A stretch of DNA of 64,000 bases from Escherichia coli. Lineage in GTDB: Bacteria; Pseudomonadota; Gammaproteobacteria; Enterobacterales; Enterobacteriaceae. The position numbers and the translations under genes are program-made. Position 1 is the first letter of the stretch. Every line of letters begins with the position of its first letter. The notes beneath the pieces are model-generated. The model was not told where the DNA came from. It saw only the letters and a program-made list of their open reading frames with translations, and did no database searches. Where the stretch lies: the NCBI RefSeq assembly GCF_024223415.1, contig NZ_CP100500.1; one strand, 5' to 3'. This document shows, in pieces, positions 1 through 42,628 of this stretch.

Positions 1-5563
<5,563 letters not shown>

Positions 5564-16235: not shown

Positions 16236-16601
16236 GTGAAAAAATGTGACTTTTATCACATAATAGTACTAAGTCTGAATTTTCCGGGTTATCTCAAAAT
16301 GGAATACGGTTCGACAAAGATGGAAGAGAGACTCTCTCGCAGTCCTGGTGGCAAACTGGCTTTGTGGGCTTTCTATACATGGTGTGGCTATTTTGTCTGG
16401 GCAATGGCGCGTTACATCTGGGTGATGAGCCGGATCCCCGATGCCCCTGTGTCGGGATTTGAAAGCGATTTAGGCTCTACCGCGGGAAAGTGGTTAGGGG
16501 CACTGGTTGGCTTTTTATTTATGGCTCTGGTCGGGGCATTGTTAGGCAGCATTGCCTGGTACACCCGACCTCGTCCCGCACGTAGCAGACGCTATGAATA
16601 A
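16236..16601 (+). CDS. yedR: Inner-membrane protein YedR (start uncertain; 121 aa if GTG at 16236)
   Basis: ...MEYGSTKMEERLSRSPGGKLALWAFYTWCGYFVWAMARYIWVMSRIPD..., two TM helices. Confidence 0.7.
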   Translation: MKKCDFYHIIVLSLNFPGYLKMEYGSTKMEERLSRSPGGKLALWAFYTWCGYFVWAMARYIWVMSRIPDAPVSGFESDLGSTAGKWLGALVGFLFMALVGALLGSIAWYTRPRPARSRRYE

Positions 16602-16640
16602 AAACTGCTAAGGTTGCGACTCTTTGGCAACGGAGCGCGT

Positions 16641-17336
16641 ATGGACGTACAACACTGGCAGGCACAGTTCGAAAACTGGTTGAAAAACCATCACCAGCAC
16701 CAGGACGCGGCCCATGACGTGTGTCATTTTCGCCGCGTCTGGGCTACGGCACAGAAGCTGGCGGCAGATGACGATGTCGATATGCTGGTGATTTTAACCG
16801 CCTGTTATTTTCACGATATTGTGAGCCTGGCGAAAAATCATCCACAACGGCAGCGTTCTTCAATCCTGGCGGCAGAAGAGACGCGTCGCCTGCTCCGTGA
16901 AGAGTTCGTGCAATTTCCGGCGGAGAAAATCGAGGCCGTTTGTCATGCCATTGCCGCTCACAGTTTCAGCGCGCAAATCGCCCCCTTAACAACGGAAGCT
17001 AAAATCGTCCAGGATGCGGATCGGCTGGAAGCCCTGGGGGCGATTGGCCTGGCGCGCGTCTTTGCTGTTTCAGGGGCATTGGGCGTGGCGCTGTTTGATG
17101 GCGAAGATCCGTTCGCACAGCATCGCCCGCTGGATGATAAACGCTACGCGCTGGATCATTTCCAGACTAAGTTGCTGAAGCTACCGCAAACCATGCAAAC
17201 CGCAAGAGGCAAGCAGCTGGCGCAGCACAACGCGCAATTTTTAGTCGAGTTTATGGAGAAGCTCAGTGCCGAACTGGCGGGGGAGAATGAAGGTGTCGAT
17301 CACAAGGTGATAGATGCGTTTTCACCCGCGGGATAA
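16641..17336 (+). CDS. yedJ: HD-domain phosphohydrolase YedJ (231 aa)
   Basis: [38 protein letters not shown]..., HD motif (YFHDIV). Confidence 0.85.
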
Positions 17337-36490: not shown

Positions 36491-36704
36491 CGCGCACCTC
36501 GTGGCTGATTATGGACGGCGTTATTGGCAAAGTGGAACAAGACTCACTCCCGGGTCAGCAAACTCGAAAAATTGACGCTGCCATTATTTGTGCTTTCGTT
36601 TTTTTCTATCCGCCAATAAACCCGTTTTTTTGTTGCTATTTAGCGCCTTTGTCTTATTGACTTACTGGTAGGCTTTGCTACCAGAAATTATCCAGGAGAC
36701 GAAA
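36491..36704. promoter_or_regulatory. Divergent fliF / fliE class 2 (FlhDC-dependent) promoter region
   Basis: Intergenic region between divergently oriented fliF and fliE; assignment from conserved flagellar regulon architecture, sites not individually mapped. Confidence 0.4.
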
Positions 36705-37019
36705 ATGTCAGCGATACAGGGGATTGAAGGGGTTATCAGCCAGTTACAGGCTACGGCGATGAGTGCGCGTGCACAGGATTCACTGCCGCAACCGACCATT
36801 AGTTTTGCCGGGCAGCTGCACGCCGCGCTCGATCGCATTAGCGATACACAAACAGCTGCCCGCACGCAGGCAGAAAAATTCACCCTCGGTGAACCCGGCG
36901 TGGCGTTAAACGATGTGATGACCGATATGCAAAAAGCCTCAGTTTCTATGCAAATGGGGATTCAGGTGCGTAATAAGCTGGTGGCCGCGTATCAGGAAGT
37001 GATGTCCATGCAGGTGTAG
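36705..37019 (+). CDS. fliE: Flagellar hook-basal body protein FliE (104 aa)
   Basis: [104 protein letters not shown]. Confidence 0.95.
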
Positions 37020-37352
37020 GTTTTGTAACCTGTTGTTAATTACTTCCAATCTCACCGCTTGGGGCATGGATGGGGCAAACTCACTCAATTTCTGGTTTAA
37101 AATGGATACCTGATCCTGAAAGTTTTCTGCCATCCACGATCCGTAAACGCGATAACATGTTTTGTCTTCGCTTTGCTCATAGGAAGAGTGAACTCTTTTG
37201 TTAGCCTGGGGTTCCTTCTGATCATTATTGTTCCTGCCTTTATCTCTTGCCACGCCAGAGCCCCCTGGATACACATACACCAGGATGAAAACGGTGAGTT
37301 GTGTTCAAACTGTAGTACAATTCTCTCCAGTATGAACAGGAAAGAATATGCT

Positions 37353-37685
37353 ATGAACCCTTATATTTATCTTGGTGGCGCAATACTTGCAGAGGTCATT
37401 GGTACAACCTTAATGAAGTTTTCAGAGGGGTTTACACGGTTATGGCCCTCTGTTGGCACAATTATTTGCTATTGTGCATCATTTTGGTTATTAGCTCAGA
37501 CACTGGCTTATATACCTACAGGGATTGCTTATGCTATCTGGTCAGGAGTCGGTATCGTTCTGATTAGTTTGCTTTCCTGGGGATTTTTTGGCCAACGACT
37601 GGACTTGCCAGCCATCATAGGCATGATGTTGATTTGTGCCGGTGTGTTAGTCATTAACTTGTTGTCACGAAGCGCACCGCATTAA
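37353..37685 (+). CDS. emrE: SMR-family multidrug efflux transporter EmrE (110 aa)
   Basis: MNPYIYLGGAILAEVIGTTLMKFSEGFTRLWPSVGTIICYCASFWLLAQTLAYIPTGIAYAIWSGVGIVLISLLSWGFFGQRLDLPAIIGMMLICAGVLVINLLSRSAPH; conserved Glu14. Confidence 0.9.
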   Translation: MNPYIYLGGAILAEVIGTTLMKFSEGFTRLWPSVGTIICYCASFWLLAQTLAYIPTGIAYAIWSGVGIVLISLLSWGFFGQRLDLPAIIGMMLICAGVLVINLLSRSAPH

Positions 37686-37853
37686 AAAATAATCATCCTT
37701 GAGATAACAGGAATCTGATTTGTGCATATTATGGCTAATGTTCGGGGCAACTTTATAATTATGATTGCATTTGCGCGATCATTGCGCCTTTTTGCATAAT
37801 GAGATCAATGCACATCAAATAAAATAACGATAGGTCACAACAAAGAGGTTTTT

Positions 37854-38405
37854 ATGAAAAAACTTATCGTTTCAAGTGTATTGGCATTCATAACATTTTC
37901 TGCGCAGGCCGCAGCATTTCAGGTCACTAGTAATGAAATAAAAACAGGAGAGCAACTTACAACGTCTCATGTATTTTCTGGATTTGGGTGTGAGGGGGGT
38001 AATACATCGCCCTCATTAACCTGGTCTGGTGCTCCAGAAGGCACCAAAAGCTTTGCCGTAACTGTGTATGATCCAGATGCGCCTACAGGCAGCGGATGGT
38101 GGCACTGGACTGTTGCTAATATTCCAGCAACGGTAACATATTTGCCCGCTGATGCAGGAAGACGTGATGGTACAAAACTTCCGACTGGTGCTGTCCAAGG
38201 CCGAAATGATTTTGGTTATGCGGGATTTGGTGGAGCATGTCCTCCCAAAGGAGATAAACCCCATCATTACCAGTTTAAAATATGGGCTCTAAAAACTGAT
38301 AAGATTCCTGTGGATTCTAATTCCAGCGGAGCGTTAGTTGGTTATATGCTTAATGCCAATAAAATTGCAACCGCTGAGATAATACCCGTTTATGAGGTAA
38401 AGTAG
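37854..38405 (+). CDS. ybcL: Secreted PEBP-family (Raf kinase inhibitor-like) protein YbcL (183 aa)
   Basis: Signal peptide MKKLIVSSVLAFITFSAQAAAF, PEBP motifs (YDPDAP, HHYQFKIWAL). Confidence 0.85.
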   Translation: MKKLIVSSVLAFITFSAQAAAFQVTSNEIKTGEQLTTSHVFSGFGCEGGNTSPSLTWSGAPEGTKSFAVTVYDPDAPTGSGWWHWTVANIPATVTYLPADAGRRDGTKLPTGAVQGRNDFGYAGFGGACPPKGDKPHHYQFKIWALKTDKIPVDSNSSGALVGYMLNANKIATAEIIPVYEVK

Positions 38406-38414
38406 GATAAGAGT

Positions 38415-39212
38415 ATGCTGGCAAAAGATAGGACTAACCTAAAGATTGAAGAAATACGGATGCATAAACATCATGAGATTCACAGGGTTAAGCCTCTTAT
38501 GCCAGCTTTATGTCGTATCCGTCAGGGAAAAAAAATTATCAATTGGGAGACGCATAGTCTAACTGTTGATAATAATCAGATAATATTATTTCCCTGTGGA
38601 TATGAATTTTATATTGCGAATTACCCAGAAGCAGGTCTTTATCTTGCAGAAATGCTTTATTATCCCATTGATCTAATTGAAAAGTTCCAAAATCTTTATG
38701 CGATAACCGATCAAATTCGTAACACGACAGGTTTCTGCTTACCTCAGAATCCCGAGTTAATATATTGTTGGGAGCAACTAAAAACATCTATTTCCCGAGG
38801 CTTCTCAACGCAAATTCAGGAACACTTAGCAATGGGCGTTCTACTTTCATTAGGAGCACATCATGTTAATTGTTTACTTTTATCAGATAGTAAACAATCA
38901 TTAATAAGTCGTTGTTATAACCTAATGCTATCCGAACCTGGAACAAAATGGACAGCAAACAAGGTAGCGAGATATCTCTACATTTCTGTTTCCACATTGC
39001 ATCGCCGTCTGGCAAGCGAGGGAGTAAGTTTTCAAAGTATATTGGACGACGTGAGGTTAAATAATGCGTTGTCTGCTATACAAACGACAGTAAAACCCAT
39101 CAGCGAGATTGCCAGGGAAAATGGTTACAAGTGTCCTTCTCGTTTTACTGAAAGGTTCCATAATCGTTTTAAGATAACACCAAGAGAGCTAAGAAAAGCG
39201 TCCAGAGAGTAA
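38415..39212 (+). CDS. ybcM: AraC/XylS-family transcriptional regulator YbcM (265 aa)
   Basis: C-terminal AraC HTH ([47 protein letters not shown]...[20 protein letters not shown]). Confidence 0.85.
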
Positions 39213-39503
39213 AAGTATTTTATGAAGGAGCAACAGCATAGATTTTTATTTTGGAAAATAAATACGGCATACTCAACCTATTGGAGCCTGAACAATCCGG
39301 TGACTTCTGCGCTAATCGGGGACGTTTATAAGCACATATAATTGATACTATCTTCCTCCATCACAATTTCAGAAATGCACGTGTGATTTTTTTGCATCCG
39401 GCGTTTGGACTATGTGGAGTTCAAGAGTGGGAAAGTTACAAGAGGTTGAGGGGATAATTAAAGGGATGCTTATGACATTAGATATCCGGATAGGTACGGA
39501 TAT

Positions 39504-39543
39504 CGTTGTTATTAAATCTAGTTCGTTGTTATTAAATCTAGTT
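39504..39543. repeat. Perfect 2-copy tandem direct repeat of a 20-bp unit (CGTTGTTATTAAATCTAGTT)
   Basis: Two adjacent identical 20-mers inside AT-rich non-coding DNA. Confidence 0.9.
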
Positions 39544-40175
39544 TATACGTTAAGATGCAGCTACAGCAGAAATTGCCACTGTTAATTTTTTCATCGTGAG
39601 CCTTTTATTTGAACTATTATTTAAAAATGATGTCACTGCACTACAAATATTCATCCAATCAATGAGATTATTTCAAGATGTAAGTTTTAGTTTCTCATTT
39701 AAATTGTGAAGTAGATCCCTATCTTTATCTGAACTGTTTCTATTGCACACAATGCATGACTATTTTGTGAACGAATATAAATTTGGTAGTTAAATTATAT
39801 TAAAGGTTGTTATTTATGATTGACTCATAATTTATTTATTTAATTTAAATAGCCTAGAAATAACCATGGAAATTATTTGCATGATGTTTGTTTAGATTTA
39901 TTAATGTAATTGAGGTGGTTTTATTTAATACGCAATATAGCGCCGCTTGATATTAGTTCTATTTTTTTTGCGTAAGATAGATGAGACAAACTGAGACGCA
40001 TAATGGTTTGCAAGGCTCTAATACTTTGATGTTGAGGATGTGATGGGGCATGTACGGGGCATAGTACAATGATGTCCATGCTGGTGTAGATAATCTCCAG
40101 GCTTATCCGGTGCGCCGTAAAACCCCGTCCTTCAGGGCAGGGATATAAGGCGTGGTTTTCCACCTGACCAGGTGT

Positions 40176-40595
40176 TTGCTGTTGTTCAATGTATTGGCGG
40201 ATGACGGATATTGGCGCACCTCCGCAGCTACTGGCAAAATAGCCAGGACTCCACAAAACGCCTTTGTAGTAATACCTGACTGCAATATCTGGTCGATCTC
40301 GTCGCAGTCACCTACCCGATACGCCTTTGAGGCTGTTTACCAGACTGGATATCGCCAGTTTGGGAGGATAGTTAATTAACAAATGGACGTGATCTGGTTC
40401 GCCATCCATTTCAACCAGTTCAGCTTCAAAATCAGCACATACATTTGAAAAGTAAGTGCGTAGTTTTTCTGTCGCGTCATGGTCAAAAATCTGACGTCGG
40501 TATCTGGTGACAAAGACCAGGTGAACATGCATCAGGAAAACACAATGCCTTCCACGCCGGATATCGGTTTCTTTTTTCACAGACCAAAGTATCAT
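40176..40595 (-). pseudogene. tnpA: tnpA (HUH Y1 transposase of IS200/IS605 family) interrupted by an in-frame TGA
   Basis: N-part MILWSVKKETDIRRGRHCVFLMHVHLVFVTRYRR...EPDHVHLL (HUH motif) ends at TGA 40308..40310; same frame continues LRRDRPDIAVRYYYKGVLWSPGYFASSCGGAPISVIRQYIEQQ (catalytic Tyr region). Confidence 0.75.
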
Positions 40596-40602
40596 TTGGC
40601 CT

Positions 40603-41811
40603 GTGAAACGACTACAAGCATTTAAATTCCAGTTAAGACCCGGTGGTCAACAGGAGCGTGAAATGAGGCGCTTCGCAGGCGCATGTCGTTTCGTTTTCAA
40701 TCGTGCTCTGGCACGTCAGAATGAGAATCATGAGGTCGGTAATAAATACATCCCTTACGGGAAAATGGCTTCCTGGCTGGTTGAGTGGAAAAATGCCACT
40801 GAAACGCAATGGCTTAAAGATGCCCCGTCACAGCCATTGCAACAGTCACTGAAAGACCTTGAGCGGGCTTACAAAAACTTCTTCCAGAATCGGGCTGCTT
40901 TTCCCCGATTCAAAAAGCGGGGACAGAATGATGTATTCCGCTACCCGCAGGGCGTTAAGCTCGATCAGGAAAACAGCCGTATTTTTCTGCCGAAACTGGG
41001 CTGGATGCGCTACCGGAACAGCCGTCAGGTCACGGGTGTTGTGAAAAATGTCACTGTCAGCCAGTCCTGCGGTAAGTGGTACATCAGTATTCAGACAGAA
41101 AGTGAAGTATCAACTCCGGTTCACCCTTCAGCATCAATGGTCGGGCTGGATGCTGGCGTGGCTAAACTCGCCACGCTGTCAGATGGCACAGTCTTTGAGC
41201 CTGTAAACAGTTTTCAGAAAAACCAGAAGAAGCTGGCGAGACTTCAGCGACAGTTAAGCCGCAAGGTCAAATTCAGCAACAACTGGCAGAAGCAGAAACG
41301 CAAAATACAGCGACTGCATTCCTGTATCGCAAATATCCGCAGGGACTACCTTCACAAAGTCACAACGACCGTCAGCAAAAACCACGCAATGATAGTCATT
41401 GAGGATTTGAAGGTCAGCAACATGTCAAAGTCAGCAGCGGGTACGGTCAGCCAGCCGGGGCGCAATGTCCGGGCAAAATCAGGTTTAAACCGTTCGATAC
41501 TGGATCAGGGCTGGTATGAAATGCGCCGCCAGCTTGAGTACAAGCAGCTCTGGCGTGGCGGTCAGGTGCTTGCTGTTCCGCCAGCGTACACAAGCCAGCG
41601 TTGCGCGTGCTGTGGTCATACAGAGAAAGAAAACCGCCTGTCACAAAGTAAATTCAGATGCCAGGTATGTGGATATACAGCGAACGCCGATGTAAATGGC
41701 GCTCGTAACATTTTAGCGGCGGGGCACGCCGTTCTTGCCTGTGGAGAGATGGTGCAGTCAGGCCGCCCGTTGAAGCAGGAACCCACCGAAATGATTCAGG
41801 CGACAGCCTGA
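40603..41811 (+). CDS. tnpB: TnpB (IS605 OrfB family RNA-guided endonuclease), apparently intact, 402 aa
   Basis: RuvC-I ([12 protein letters not shown]), RuvC-II ([11 protein letters not shown]), zinc finger CACCGH...CQVCG, RuvC-III ([10 protein letters not shown]). Confidence 0.85.
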
Positions 41812-41850
41812 ACGTAGCAGGGATCCTCGTCCTTCAGGGCGTGGAGGATG

Positions 41851-42522
41851 TCAACAAACAGGTTGAATTAACTCCGCGCCCTGGTTTTTGACATTACCTA
41901 CCGCGCGCGATACCGGGTGCCAGGTGAACTGGTTTGCTGGCACACAGCCGTTGGTAGCAATTTCTGATGCTTCTTTACCGCCAATCTCTTGCCGCATCCA
42001 TTCCTGTGCAGCTTCTGGCGACAGAACCAGCGGGCGGCGGTCATGAATATCTACCAGACCCTGGTCTGCTGCTGCAGTGACAATTAAAAATCCTTCGGCT
42101 TCGTCACCGCGCTCAAACGGTGTGCTACCTATCGCGGCCATAAAAACAGGTTGTCCATCAGCGCGATAGATAAAATAAGGCTGTTTTTTGTCGCCTTCTT
42201 TTTTCCACTCAAACCAGCCATCGGCAAAACAGATTGCCCGACCATGTTGCCAGAGCGGTTTAAACATACGACTGGTGGCCGCAGTTTCTACGCGGGCGTT
42301 AATCAGCGGCGGTTTATCCCACCATCCGGGAGCATATCCCCAGAAAACCGGATCCAGATGAAGGTGTTCATCACGTTCACTGAGCAGAAGAACTTTGGTT
42401 CCCGGCGCGACGTTGTATCTGCCAATGGGTTCGGGATCGTAGGGAATATCGCGTTCAATATCTTCCGCGAGAAGCGCAAGGTAATCTTCACGCGTTTGGG
42501 ATTGGGCAAAGCGTCCACACAT
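41851..42522 (-). CDS. yedK: SRAP-family abasic-site processing protein YedK (223 aa)
   Basis: MCGRFAQSQTREDYLALLAEDIERDIPYDPEPIGRYNVAPGTKV..., N-terminal Cys2 nucleophile. Confidence 0.9.
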   Translation of the reverse strand: MCGRFAQSQTREDYLALLAEDIERDIPYDPEPIGRYNVAPGTKVLLLSERDEHLHLDPVFWGYAPGWWDKPPLINARVETAATSRMFKPLWQHGRAICFADGWFEWKKEGDKKQPYFIYRADGQPVFMAAIGSTPFERGDEAEGFLIVTAAADQGLVDIHDRRPLVLSPEAAQEWMRQEIGGKEASEIATNGCVPANQFTWHPVSRAVGNVKNQGAELIQPVC

Positions 42523-42628
42523 AGAAACCTCCTGAGATCATACTGAAAAGAATAGGAGAGGGGGCGGGTAAAATCTATGTGTCAGAGGCAACGATGTTCC
42601 CGCTGTGGGCCACAGCGGGAATGAGGGA

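Follow-up and report, generated by a model that had tools for sequence, protein, structure and literature searches.

The emrE, ybcL and ybcM genes downstream of fliE

We analyzed a 64,000-bp stretch of the Escherichia coli chromosome (hereafter the window). In the window, the minus strand carries fliK through fliF and the plus strand carries fliE; after fliE come emrE, ybcL and ybcM, followed by an IS200/IS605 element and then by yedK, yedF, yedE, yedD and amyA. The positions of fliE and of the three genes that follow it are:

36675..37019, plus strand: fliE, host flagellar gene (from the list of open reading frames and the RefSeq annotation of near-identical genomes)
37353..37685, plus strand: emrE, 110 aa, predicted SMR proton/drug antiporter
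37854..38405, plus strand: ybcL, 183 aa, predicted periplasmic PEBP/Raf-kinase-inhibitor-like protein with an N-terminal signal peptide
38415..39212, plus strand: ybcM, 265 aa, AraC-type regulator, starting 9 bp 3' of ybcL

The gene calls made in an initial annotation of this DNA proved correct. All three genes are contiguous and intact, and their products matched the Pfam families SMR (PF00893; E = 2.1e-35), PBP (E = 1.1e-41) and HTH_18 (E = 1.5e-16), respectively. EmrE matched the EmrE-specific NCBIfam model NF042984 over its full length (240.5 bits against a cut-off of 226), YbcL matched the NCBIfam equivalog NF007330 (400.7 bits against 277), and YbcM matched PF12833 at residues 185-261 (60.9 bits against 33.6), corresponding to a C-terminal AraC-type double helix-turn-helix. 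Amino acid identities to the K-12 proteins were 98.2% for EmrE, 95.1% for YbcL and 91.3% for YbcM (over 265 aa).

Both EmrE, a textbook example of a transporter, and YbcL are commonly described as products of the DLP12 prophage. The membrane-embedded Glu14 of EmrE is essential for proton/substrate coupling. The EmrE protein encoded in the window, MNPYIYLGGAILAEVIG, has E at position 14 and differs from that of K-12 by two substitutions only, V100 and A108. Judging from its 98.2% identity to K-12 and a dN/dS of 0.021, this protein probably mediates the efflux of cationic substrates. The N terminus of YbcL, MKKLIVSSVLAFITFSAQAAA, is conserved with K-12 and E. albertii and is predicted to be a signal peptide.

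For the other two genes, dN/dS relative to K-12 was 0.09 (ybcL) and 0.129 (ybcM), and dS between the fliE-locus and DLP12 copies was 0.24-0.38; all three genes have been under purifying selection since the split of the two Escherichia lineages. The GC content was 54-58% in the fli genes, 36-44% over positions 37000-39500 and 28% at 39500-40000.

Phage remnants on both sides of the genes

The initial annotation had described the block as lying outside a prophage context, with no phage genes on either side. By contrast, we found remnants of an integrase gene, ren, ylcH, Q and nmpC/ompD flanking the block together with a pair of att cores, and the integrase and Q remnants, the att repeats and the collinearity with DLP12 contradict that description. 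The remnants are the following, where L004 is the K-12 DLP12 sequence:

37038..37260, minus strand: integrase pseudogene, two pieces in two reading frames (tblastn against phage integrases)
37277..37352, plus strand: last 9 bp of ren (37277-37285), then the emrE upstream region, 92% identical to L004 4239-4314
39213..39419, plus strand: hairpin downstream of ybcM and degraded ylcH (remnant around 39329-39419); DLP12 homology stops at the ybcN start codon
39429..39523, plus strand: last 31 codons of the late-gene antiterminator Q (quuD-like), 82.5% identical to L004 10241-10337
39554..39931, minus strand: first 41 bp of the nmpC/ompD porin gene and its upstream region, 81.6% identical to PhiR34_1 16271-16649
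39932..40069, no strand assigned: 138 bp adjoining attR, also present in the IS-free variant L009

The first integrase piece corresponds to aa 387-431 of the Int protein of lambdoid phage IdasGreatGrand (78% identity) and the second to roughly Int aa 238-277, the N-terminal 237 aa and aa 278-386 having been deleted. The tblastn E values for this remnant were 4e-15 in one search and 3e-20 and 4e-12 in another, and PGAP also annotates a partial integrase at the stub next to fliE. The remnant is oriented toward attL and fliE, and is of the IdasGreatGrand/Fels-1 type. The IntD type of DLP12 was considered as well and rejected, IntD and the PhiR34_1 Int giving only noise in tblastn.

BLAST searches against K-12 DLP12 and PhiR34_1 showed 92% identity to DLP12 over 37277-37687 (the end of ren and emrE) and 89% over 37699-39419/39429 (ybcL, ybcM and ylcH up to the ybcN start codon). 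The translation of the Q fragment, GKLQEVEGIIKGMLMTLDIRIGTDIVV, aligned with the C terminus of QuuD; ybcN, ninE, ybcO, rusA, ylcG and the 5' part of Q have been deleted between the ylcH remnant and this fragment. The body of the porin gene has been deleted from the window and is intact in L009, an E. coli contig filed under a Lachnospiraceae MAG. The 138 bp at 39932-40069 had no match in the phage collection, and an Rfam scan of 36500-42600 returned no matches at E <= 0.1. We found no lysis, structural/virion, replication or immunity genes between 37000 and 40089, so the case for a prophage is built on fragments (about 85 codons of int, 31 codons of Q and 41 bp of the porin gene) together with a single 20-bp repeat.

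An attachment site at the 3' end of fliE

That repeat consists of two att cores, which lie with their right-hand neighbors at the following positions (no strand assigned):

37000..37019: attL core, TGATGTCCATGCAGGTGTAG, the last 20 bp of fliE
40070..40089: attR core, TGATGTCCATGCTGGTGTAG, a 19/20 match to attL
40090..40107: native 18 bp, a 100% match to L003 8506-8489 and L006 13158-13175
40108..41855: IS200/IS605 element, outside attR, inserted in the yedK stop codon

The cores form a direct repeat (blastn-short; E = 4.9e-4), and the attR core also matched a phage attP core (E = 4.5e-4). Indeed, the same core and the same following 16 bp adjoin int in the attP of Escherichia phage IdasGreatGrand. 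In K-12 and O157:H7, the native 18 bp run straight into the yedK stop codon, and the right edge of attR is the exact point at which the K-12 and O157 alleles diverge. Because these native 18 bp follow directly to the right of the second core copy, attR sits on native sequence. In the ancestor, a distance of only about 16 bp would have separated the stop codons of fliE and yedK. Phages still use the fliE attachment site: a full-length int of the fliE-site type adjoins fliE in 8 genomes, and strain UTAK-1 carries a complete lambdoid prophage whose full-length int abuts fliE. In the IS200/IS605 element, tnpA has an internal stop and tnpB is intact (402 aa). The element is missing from L009, in which position 40107 joins 41855 directly.

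Origin of the remnant

We compared the locus with DLP12 and with PhiR34_1, an intact DLP12-like Escherichia phage that is 99.4-99.7% identical to DLP12. Both have the order int (toward attL), ren, emrE, ybcL, ybcM, ylcH, nin region, Q and nmpC, and the window shares with them the order ren'-emrE-ybcL-ybcM-ylcH-Q'-nmpC' (primes mark partial genes) at 82-92% identity. The shared DNA pieces are 82-92% and the three cargo proteins 91-98% identical to those of DLP12, and intD reads toward argU just as the integrase remnant reads toward fliE. By contrast, DLP12 occupies the argU site instead of the 3' end of fliE, has an integrase of another family and carries a ylcJ-ybcK cassette, which the remnant lacks. 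It measures 21 kb, whereas the remnant measures 3.1 kb and has no lysis, nin or tail genes, and it occurs in about 600-700 of 5,426 genomes, compared with about 2,660 for the fliE remnant.

Taking these results together, we conclude, with a probability of about 0.9, that positions 37000-40089 are a 3.1-kb cryptic remnant of a DLP12-like lambdoid prophage integrated in the 3' end of fliE. Site-specific recombination would have put the prophage into fliE, and successive deletions would have removed most of int and the region from xis through ren, the nin region and most of Q, the body of the porin gene, and all lysis and structural genes; the order of these deletions is one that we infer. Two cargo units (putative morons), emrE and the ybcL-ybcM operon, survive intact; both belong to the slot that separates ren from the nin region. 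The emrE product would act as a proton-coupled SMR exporter of cationic compounds, and the operon would provide a Sec-exported periplasmic PEBP protein and an AraC-type regulator that binds upstream of its own operon. Having no functional int or xis, the element no longer excises and is therefore inherited as ordinary chromosome. The cargo is presumably expressed at the fliE locus and of benefit to the host.

We found no intact phage that combines an int of the fliE-site type with emrE-ybcLM and lacks ybcK. The element is a domesticated cryptic prophage; its genes and its kind are already known, and the finding is largely ordinary. The fliE locus is a clean example of prophage domestication, with all phage functions gone and three cargo genes under purifying selection.

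The gene order common to both loci, and the IS200/IS605 element adjoining the block, would also be expected if the block had been copied from DLP12 to fliE within E. coli, via that element or by ectopic recombination. We consider such a copy highly improbable. The dS of 0.24-0.38 is too large for a recent intragenomic copy and rules one out, the IS lies outside attR and is absent from L009, ybcK is missing, and the block has its own integrase type and att site. Moreover, genomes with both copies are few, as no more than about 117 extra places were counted in 3,256 genomes. The suggestion in the initial annotation of a relocated moron block is loosely right, the genes being the cargo of a second DLP12-like lambdoid prophage that integrated independently at the fliE attB, but with these dS values they were not moved there from DLP12.

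Absence of ybcK and assortment of cassettes

The absence of ybcK, which had been noted initially, was confirmed and traced to one junction between emrE and ybcL:

37688..37698, no strand assigned: junction without the DLP12 ylcJ-ybcK cassette

These 11 bp replace a 2,088-bp K-12 segment (L004 4650-6737) that contains ylcJ, ybcK and a small open reading frame, and the emrE terminator hairpin of K-12 and E. albertii is absent at the junction. In E. albertii, emrE is followed by the terminator hairpin, ybcL and ybcM with no ybcK between them; there are ren traces upstream and a P4-type integrase is adjacent. The K-12 sequence on both sides of the ybcK segment aligns with the E. albertii spacer, and this is consistent with an insertion of ylcJ-ybcK in the DLP12 lineage. 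A search for terminal repeats or target duplications at the K-12 segment yielded only short repeats at chance level and an AATAAT microhomology.

Among the complete E. coli genomes, 1,427 have ybcK. One element that carries it is the lambdoid prophage at the icd site of O157:H7 (ren-emrE-orf-ybcK-ylcH-ybcN), which resembles the window in its cargo slot between ren and the nin region and in having emrE next to ren. However, this prophage has ybcK and lacks ybcL-ybcM, so the cassettes assort independently. Thus, three cassettes that assort independently, namely emrE, ybcL-ybcM and ylcJ-ybcK, occupy the slot between ren and the nin region, and ybcK is missing from the window because ylcJ-ybcK is a separate cassette absent from the lineage of the window.

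Distribution and alleles of the fliE locus

To describe the distribution of the locus, we used 5,426 complete E. coli genomes, about 48% of which carry the emrE-ybcLM allele at fliE. At least 80% of window positions 36900-40700 was held by 2,590 genomes, and the int'-ren' deletion junction was complete in 2,622 out of 5,426. The ybcL-ybcM pair was present in 3,256 genomes, at 3,373 places. Types were told apart by the identity of ybcL-ybcM to the window, with at least 95% taken as the fliE type (2,659 genomes) and only 90-95% as the DLP12 type (597 genomes). The fliE remnant is the commonest home of the module in E. coli, and the DLP12 version of K-12 is a minority.

The usual home of emrE and ybcL in complete E. 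coli genomes is therefore the remnant next to fliE instead of DLP12. This correction of location affects how presence or absence, copy number and regulation are read in surveys of the pan-genome, of resistance genes and of virulence. Our literature search found no description of an emrE-ybcLM locus adjacent to fliE.

Three alleles were distinguished. Allele A, with emrE-ybcLM, is exemplified by ST131, O104:H4 and E24377A. Allele B, that of K-12 and O157, has yedN/espR LRR effector genes and the GNAT gene yedL after the int stub. Allele C is the shortest (803 genomes); it keeps the int stub and derives from the K-12-type allele by deletion. We found no truly empty fliE-yedK site among the E. 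coli genomes. Decay has also proceeded to different extents within the emrE-ybcLM type: the less decayed L009 has a complete porin gene and no IS but has lost the 3' end of emrE, whereas in the more decayed ST131 strain JJ2434 Q', nmpC' and part of yedK are gone and emrE, ybcL and ybcM are intact.

In K-12, the locus is known as "cryptic prophage PR-G", or the intG pseudogene. It has the same fliE site and the same C-terminal integrase stub (window 37020-37156), with 97.7% identity over a 656-bp match that covers fliE and the stub. However, yedN (an LRR effector pseudogene) and yedL (GNAT) stand in place of emrE-ybcLM, and there is no attR core.

Since the C-terminal piece of int is common to the K-12 and O157 alleles, whose cargo differs, it may be older than the DLP12-like segment; in that case the segment would have come in later, through another integration event or through recombination. 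A history in two steps, in which an older prophage left the int stub at fliE in the E. coli ancestor and a second, DLP12-like phage then entered and decayed, is possible but on balance somewhat improbable. The second phage would have entered at the remaining att site or by recombination with the stub, and such a history would refine the main explanation without contradicting it. This history accounts for the presence of the C-terminal 136 bp of int in 5,312 of the 5,426 genomes, across all three alleles, when the rest of the remnant is found in only about 2,620, and for the yedN/espR and GNAT genes behind the same stub in K-12 and O157; that phages use the fliE site today is also in its favor. 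However, the second int piece of allele A (aa ~238-277) is fused directly to ren', most simply explained by int and ren coming from a single prophage, and allele B has no attR core.

We also weighed the proposal in the initial annotation that the three genes originally belonged to the chromosome at this locus and were captured from it by a lambdoid phage afterwards. The genes are indeed contiguous and intact with no intact phage gene nearby, and the fliE locus is their commonest location in E. coli. However, the integrase and other phage remnants that directly flank the block are collinear with DLP12 and lie inside an attL/attR pair, the GC content of the block is foreign, and the non-mobile homes of ybcL-ybcM (in Yersinia ruckeri, Cedecea, Lelliottia and Brenneria) all lack an SMR gene. 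An ancestral home at fliE is therefore very unlikely indeed. The initial annotation had itself named immediately flanking integrase genes as grounds for rejecting its reading, and the integrase remnant supplies them.

The ybcL-ybcM pair as a conserved unit

The initial annotation had further suggested that the three genes form a functional unit. In K-12, ybcL and ybcM form an autoregulated operon with a YbcM ChIP-exo peak upstream (PMC8464067), and deletion of ybcM makes K-12 8-fold more sensitive to H2O2 (PMC8464067). The corresponding region of the window is:

37699..37853, plus strand: ybcL upstream region, presumed ybcLM promoter and YbcM autoregulation site

DLP12 homology restarts 155 bp 5' of ybcL, and this region is kept at about 79% identity. 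Positions 37704-37732 resemble a promoter by pattern matching only; because promoter and terminator consensus patterns were no more numerous than in shuffled controls, we did not draw on them.

The ybcL-ybcM pair was conserved in 9 contexts, including DLP12 and the fliE locus, and in six other Enterobacterales contexts it occurred without any SMR pump. Chromosomal pairs were found in Cedecea, Yersinia ruckeri, Lelliottia and Brenneria, and mobile ones in a Tn3-family transposon of Salmonella Oslo and in an ICE of S. houtenae. In these other Enterobacterales pairs, as in the window, a 182-183-aa PBP gene precedes a 260-276-aa AraC-type gene of the same orientation, with 9-16 bp between the two, and the regulator is 49-84% identical to YbcM, the E. 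albertii island with its P4-type integrase included. YbcM homologues at 49-62% identity were always preceded by a PBP-family gene of 182-183 aa. These pairs differ from that of the window in having no adjacent SMR gene except in E. albertii, and no lambdoid context apart from the ren' trace in E. albertii. A GTDB scan by exact-peptide patterns placed close YbcM relatives in Escherichia only; the more distant ones come from a separate search. In the contexts examined, no SMR gene adjoined the pair outside Escherichia.

The emrE gene occurs more widely in E. coli, its places exceeding those of ybcLM by at least about 800, and it occurs without ybcLM in the icd-site prophage of O157. Only ybcL-ybcM is a conserved unit, and emrE lies outside it. 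The suggested functional unit therefore stands for ybcL-ybcM, an operon in K-12 and a pair in 9 contexts, but not for emrE.

More tentatively, ybcL-ybcM could be an ancient, self-regulated Enterobacterales cassette that phages, a Tn3-family transposon, an ICE and an integrase island have each picked up in repeated captures. Selection for a host-beneficial function in stress defense or immune evasion would then explain why the cassette and emrE have persisted side by side in three independent Escherichia elements that are otherwise decayed (the fliE remnant, DLP12 and the E. albertii sap island). In this view, YbcM might control emrE as well, or emrE might be transcribed by read-through from the flagellar promoter of fliE. 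We regard this proposal as a whole as unlikely. The conserved PEBP-AraC pairing gives a first lead to what bacterial PEBP proteins do, and YbcL itself has been reported as a factor of UPEC that suppresses neutrophil migration (PMC4810123).

As a separate observation on the YbcL sequence, position 99 of the precursor is A in the window and in ST131 and V in K-12.

Alleles of the fliE-yedK gap

The gap between fliE and yedK, which in the window holds the decayed lambdoid prophage remnant, is a hotspot with multiple alleles. The alternative alleles carry genes for type III secretion system LRR effectors (espR3, espR4) and a GNAT acetyltransferase. The observation covers the following loci.

L003 8490-10563: K-12 allele, in which yedN is a pseudogene
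L006 9025-13063: O157:H7 allele
L016: allele of strain HS30-1

A minimal allele of 377 bp was present in 803 genomes. The integrase stub, the C-terminal int piece adjoining fliE, was common to all alleles. The K-12-type allele and the window diverge exactly where the attR core (the right-hand copy of the 20-bp repeat that ends fliE) stops on its right side, and the K-12-type allele has no copy of this core.

The other end of the gap and the interior of the remnant have two further features.

Window 40108-41855: IS200/IS605-family element, inserted exactly within the yedK stop codon
Window 39412-39585: 57-aa ORF, a chimeric product of deletion

Insertion of the element lengthened YedK from 222 to 223 aa. 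Its tnpA is interrupted by an internal stop, and its TnpB ORF, of the RNA-guided nuclease family, is intact (402 aa). The ST131 strain JJ2434 shows the opposite arrangement, with an intact tnpA and a truncated tnpB; its yedK is also truncated. The less decayed variant of the remnant (L009) lacks the element at yedK. This variant lies on a 5.2-kb contig (SFGN01000137.1) deposited within a Lachnospiraceae MAG; the contig is 95-98% identical to the E. coli fliE-yedK region of the window and is probably a binning contaminant.

In the 57-aa ORF the ybcN start region is fused with the final 31 codons of Q, the late-gene antiterminator gene, followed by read-through. It could be taken for a gene in annotation and is probably meaningless. 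A pattern scan of window 37019-37353, from the stop codon of fliE to the start codon of emrE, found no terminator-like hairpin on the plus strand; emrE may be transcribed by read-through from the fliE flagellar promoter.

The PEBP-AraC pair in other genomes

The ybcL-ybcM pair, or a homologous pair, also occurs in other settings. In Escherichia albertii NBRC 107761, an island lies between sapC and sapB and interrupts the sapABCDF operon.

L011 7268-14482: 7.2-kb island with a P4-type integrase, emrE, ybcL, ybcM, an OYE-family reductase, an alpha/beta hydrolase and a LysR regulator

Salmonella Oslo has the pair as cargo of a Tn3-family transposon (L021 3617-8801), directly behind the transposase and resolvase genes, and in S. 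houtenae (L023) it lies on an ICE-like element, with an integrase and genes for TraU and TraG_N as neighbors. The Yersinia ruckeri pair (L019 7440-10440) is chromosomal and species-wide, and adjoins genes for a glyoxalase and a periplasmic Cu/Zn superoxide dismutase. These neighbors fit the reported oxidative-stress phenotype of K-12 ybcM, but the agreement may be a coincidence.
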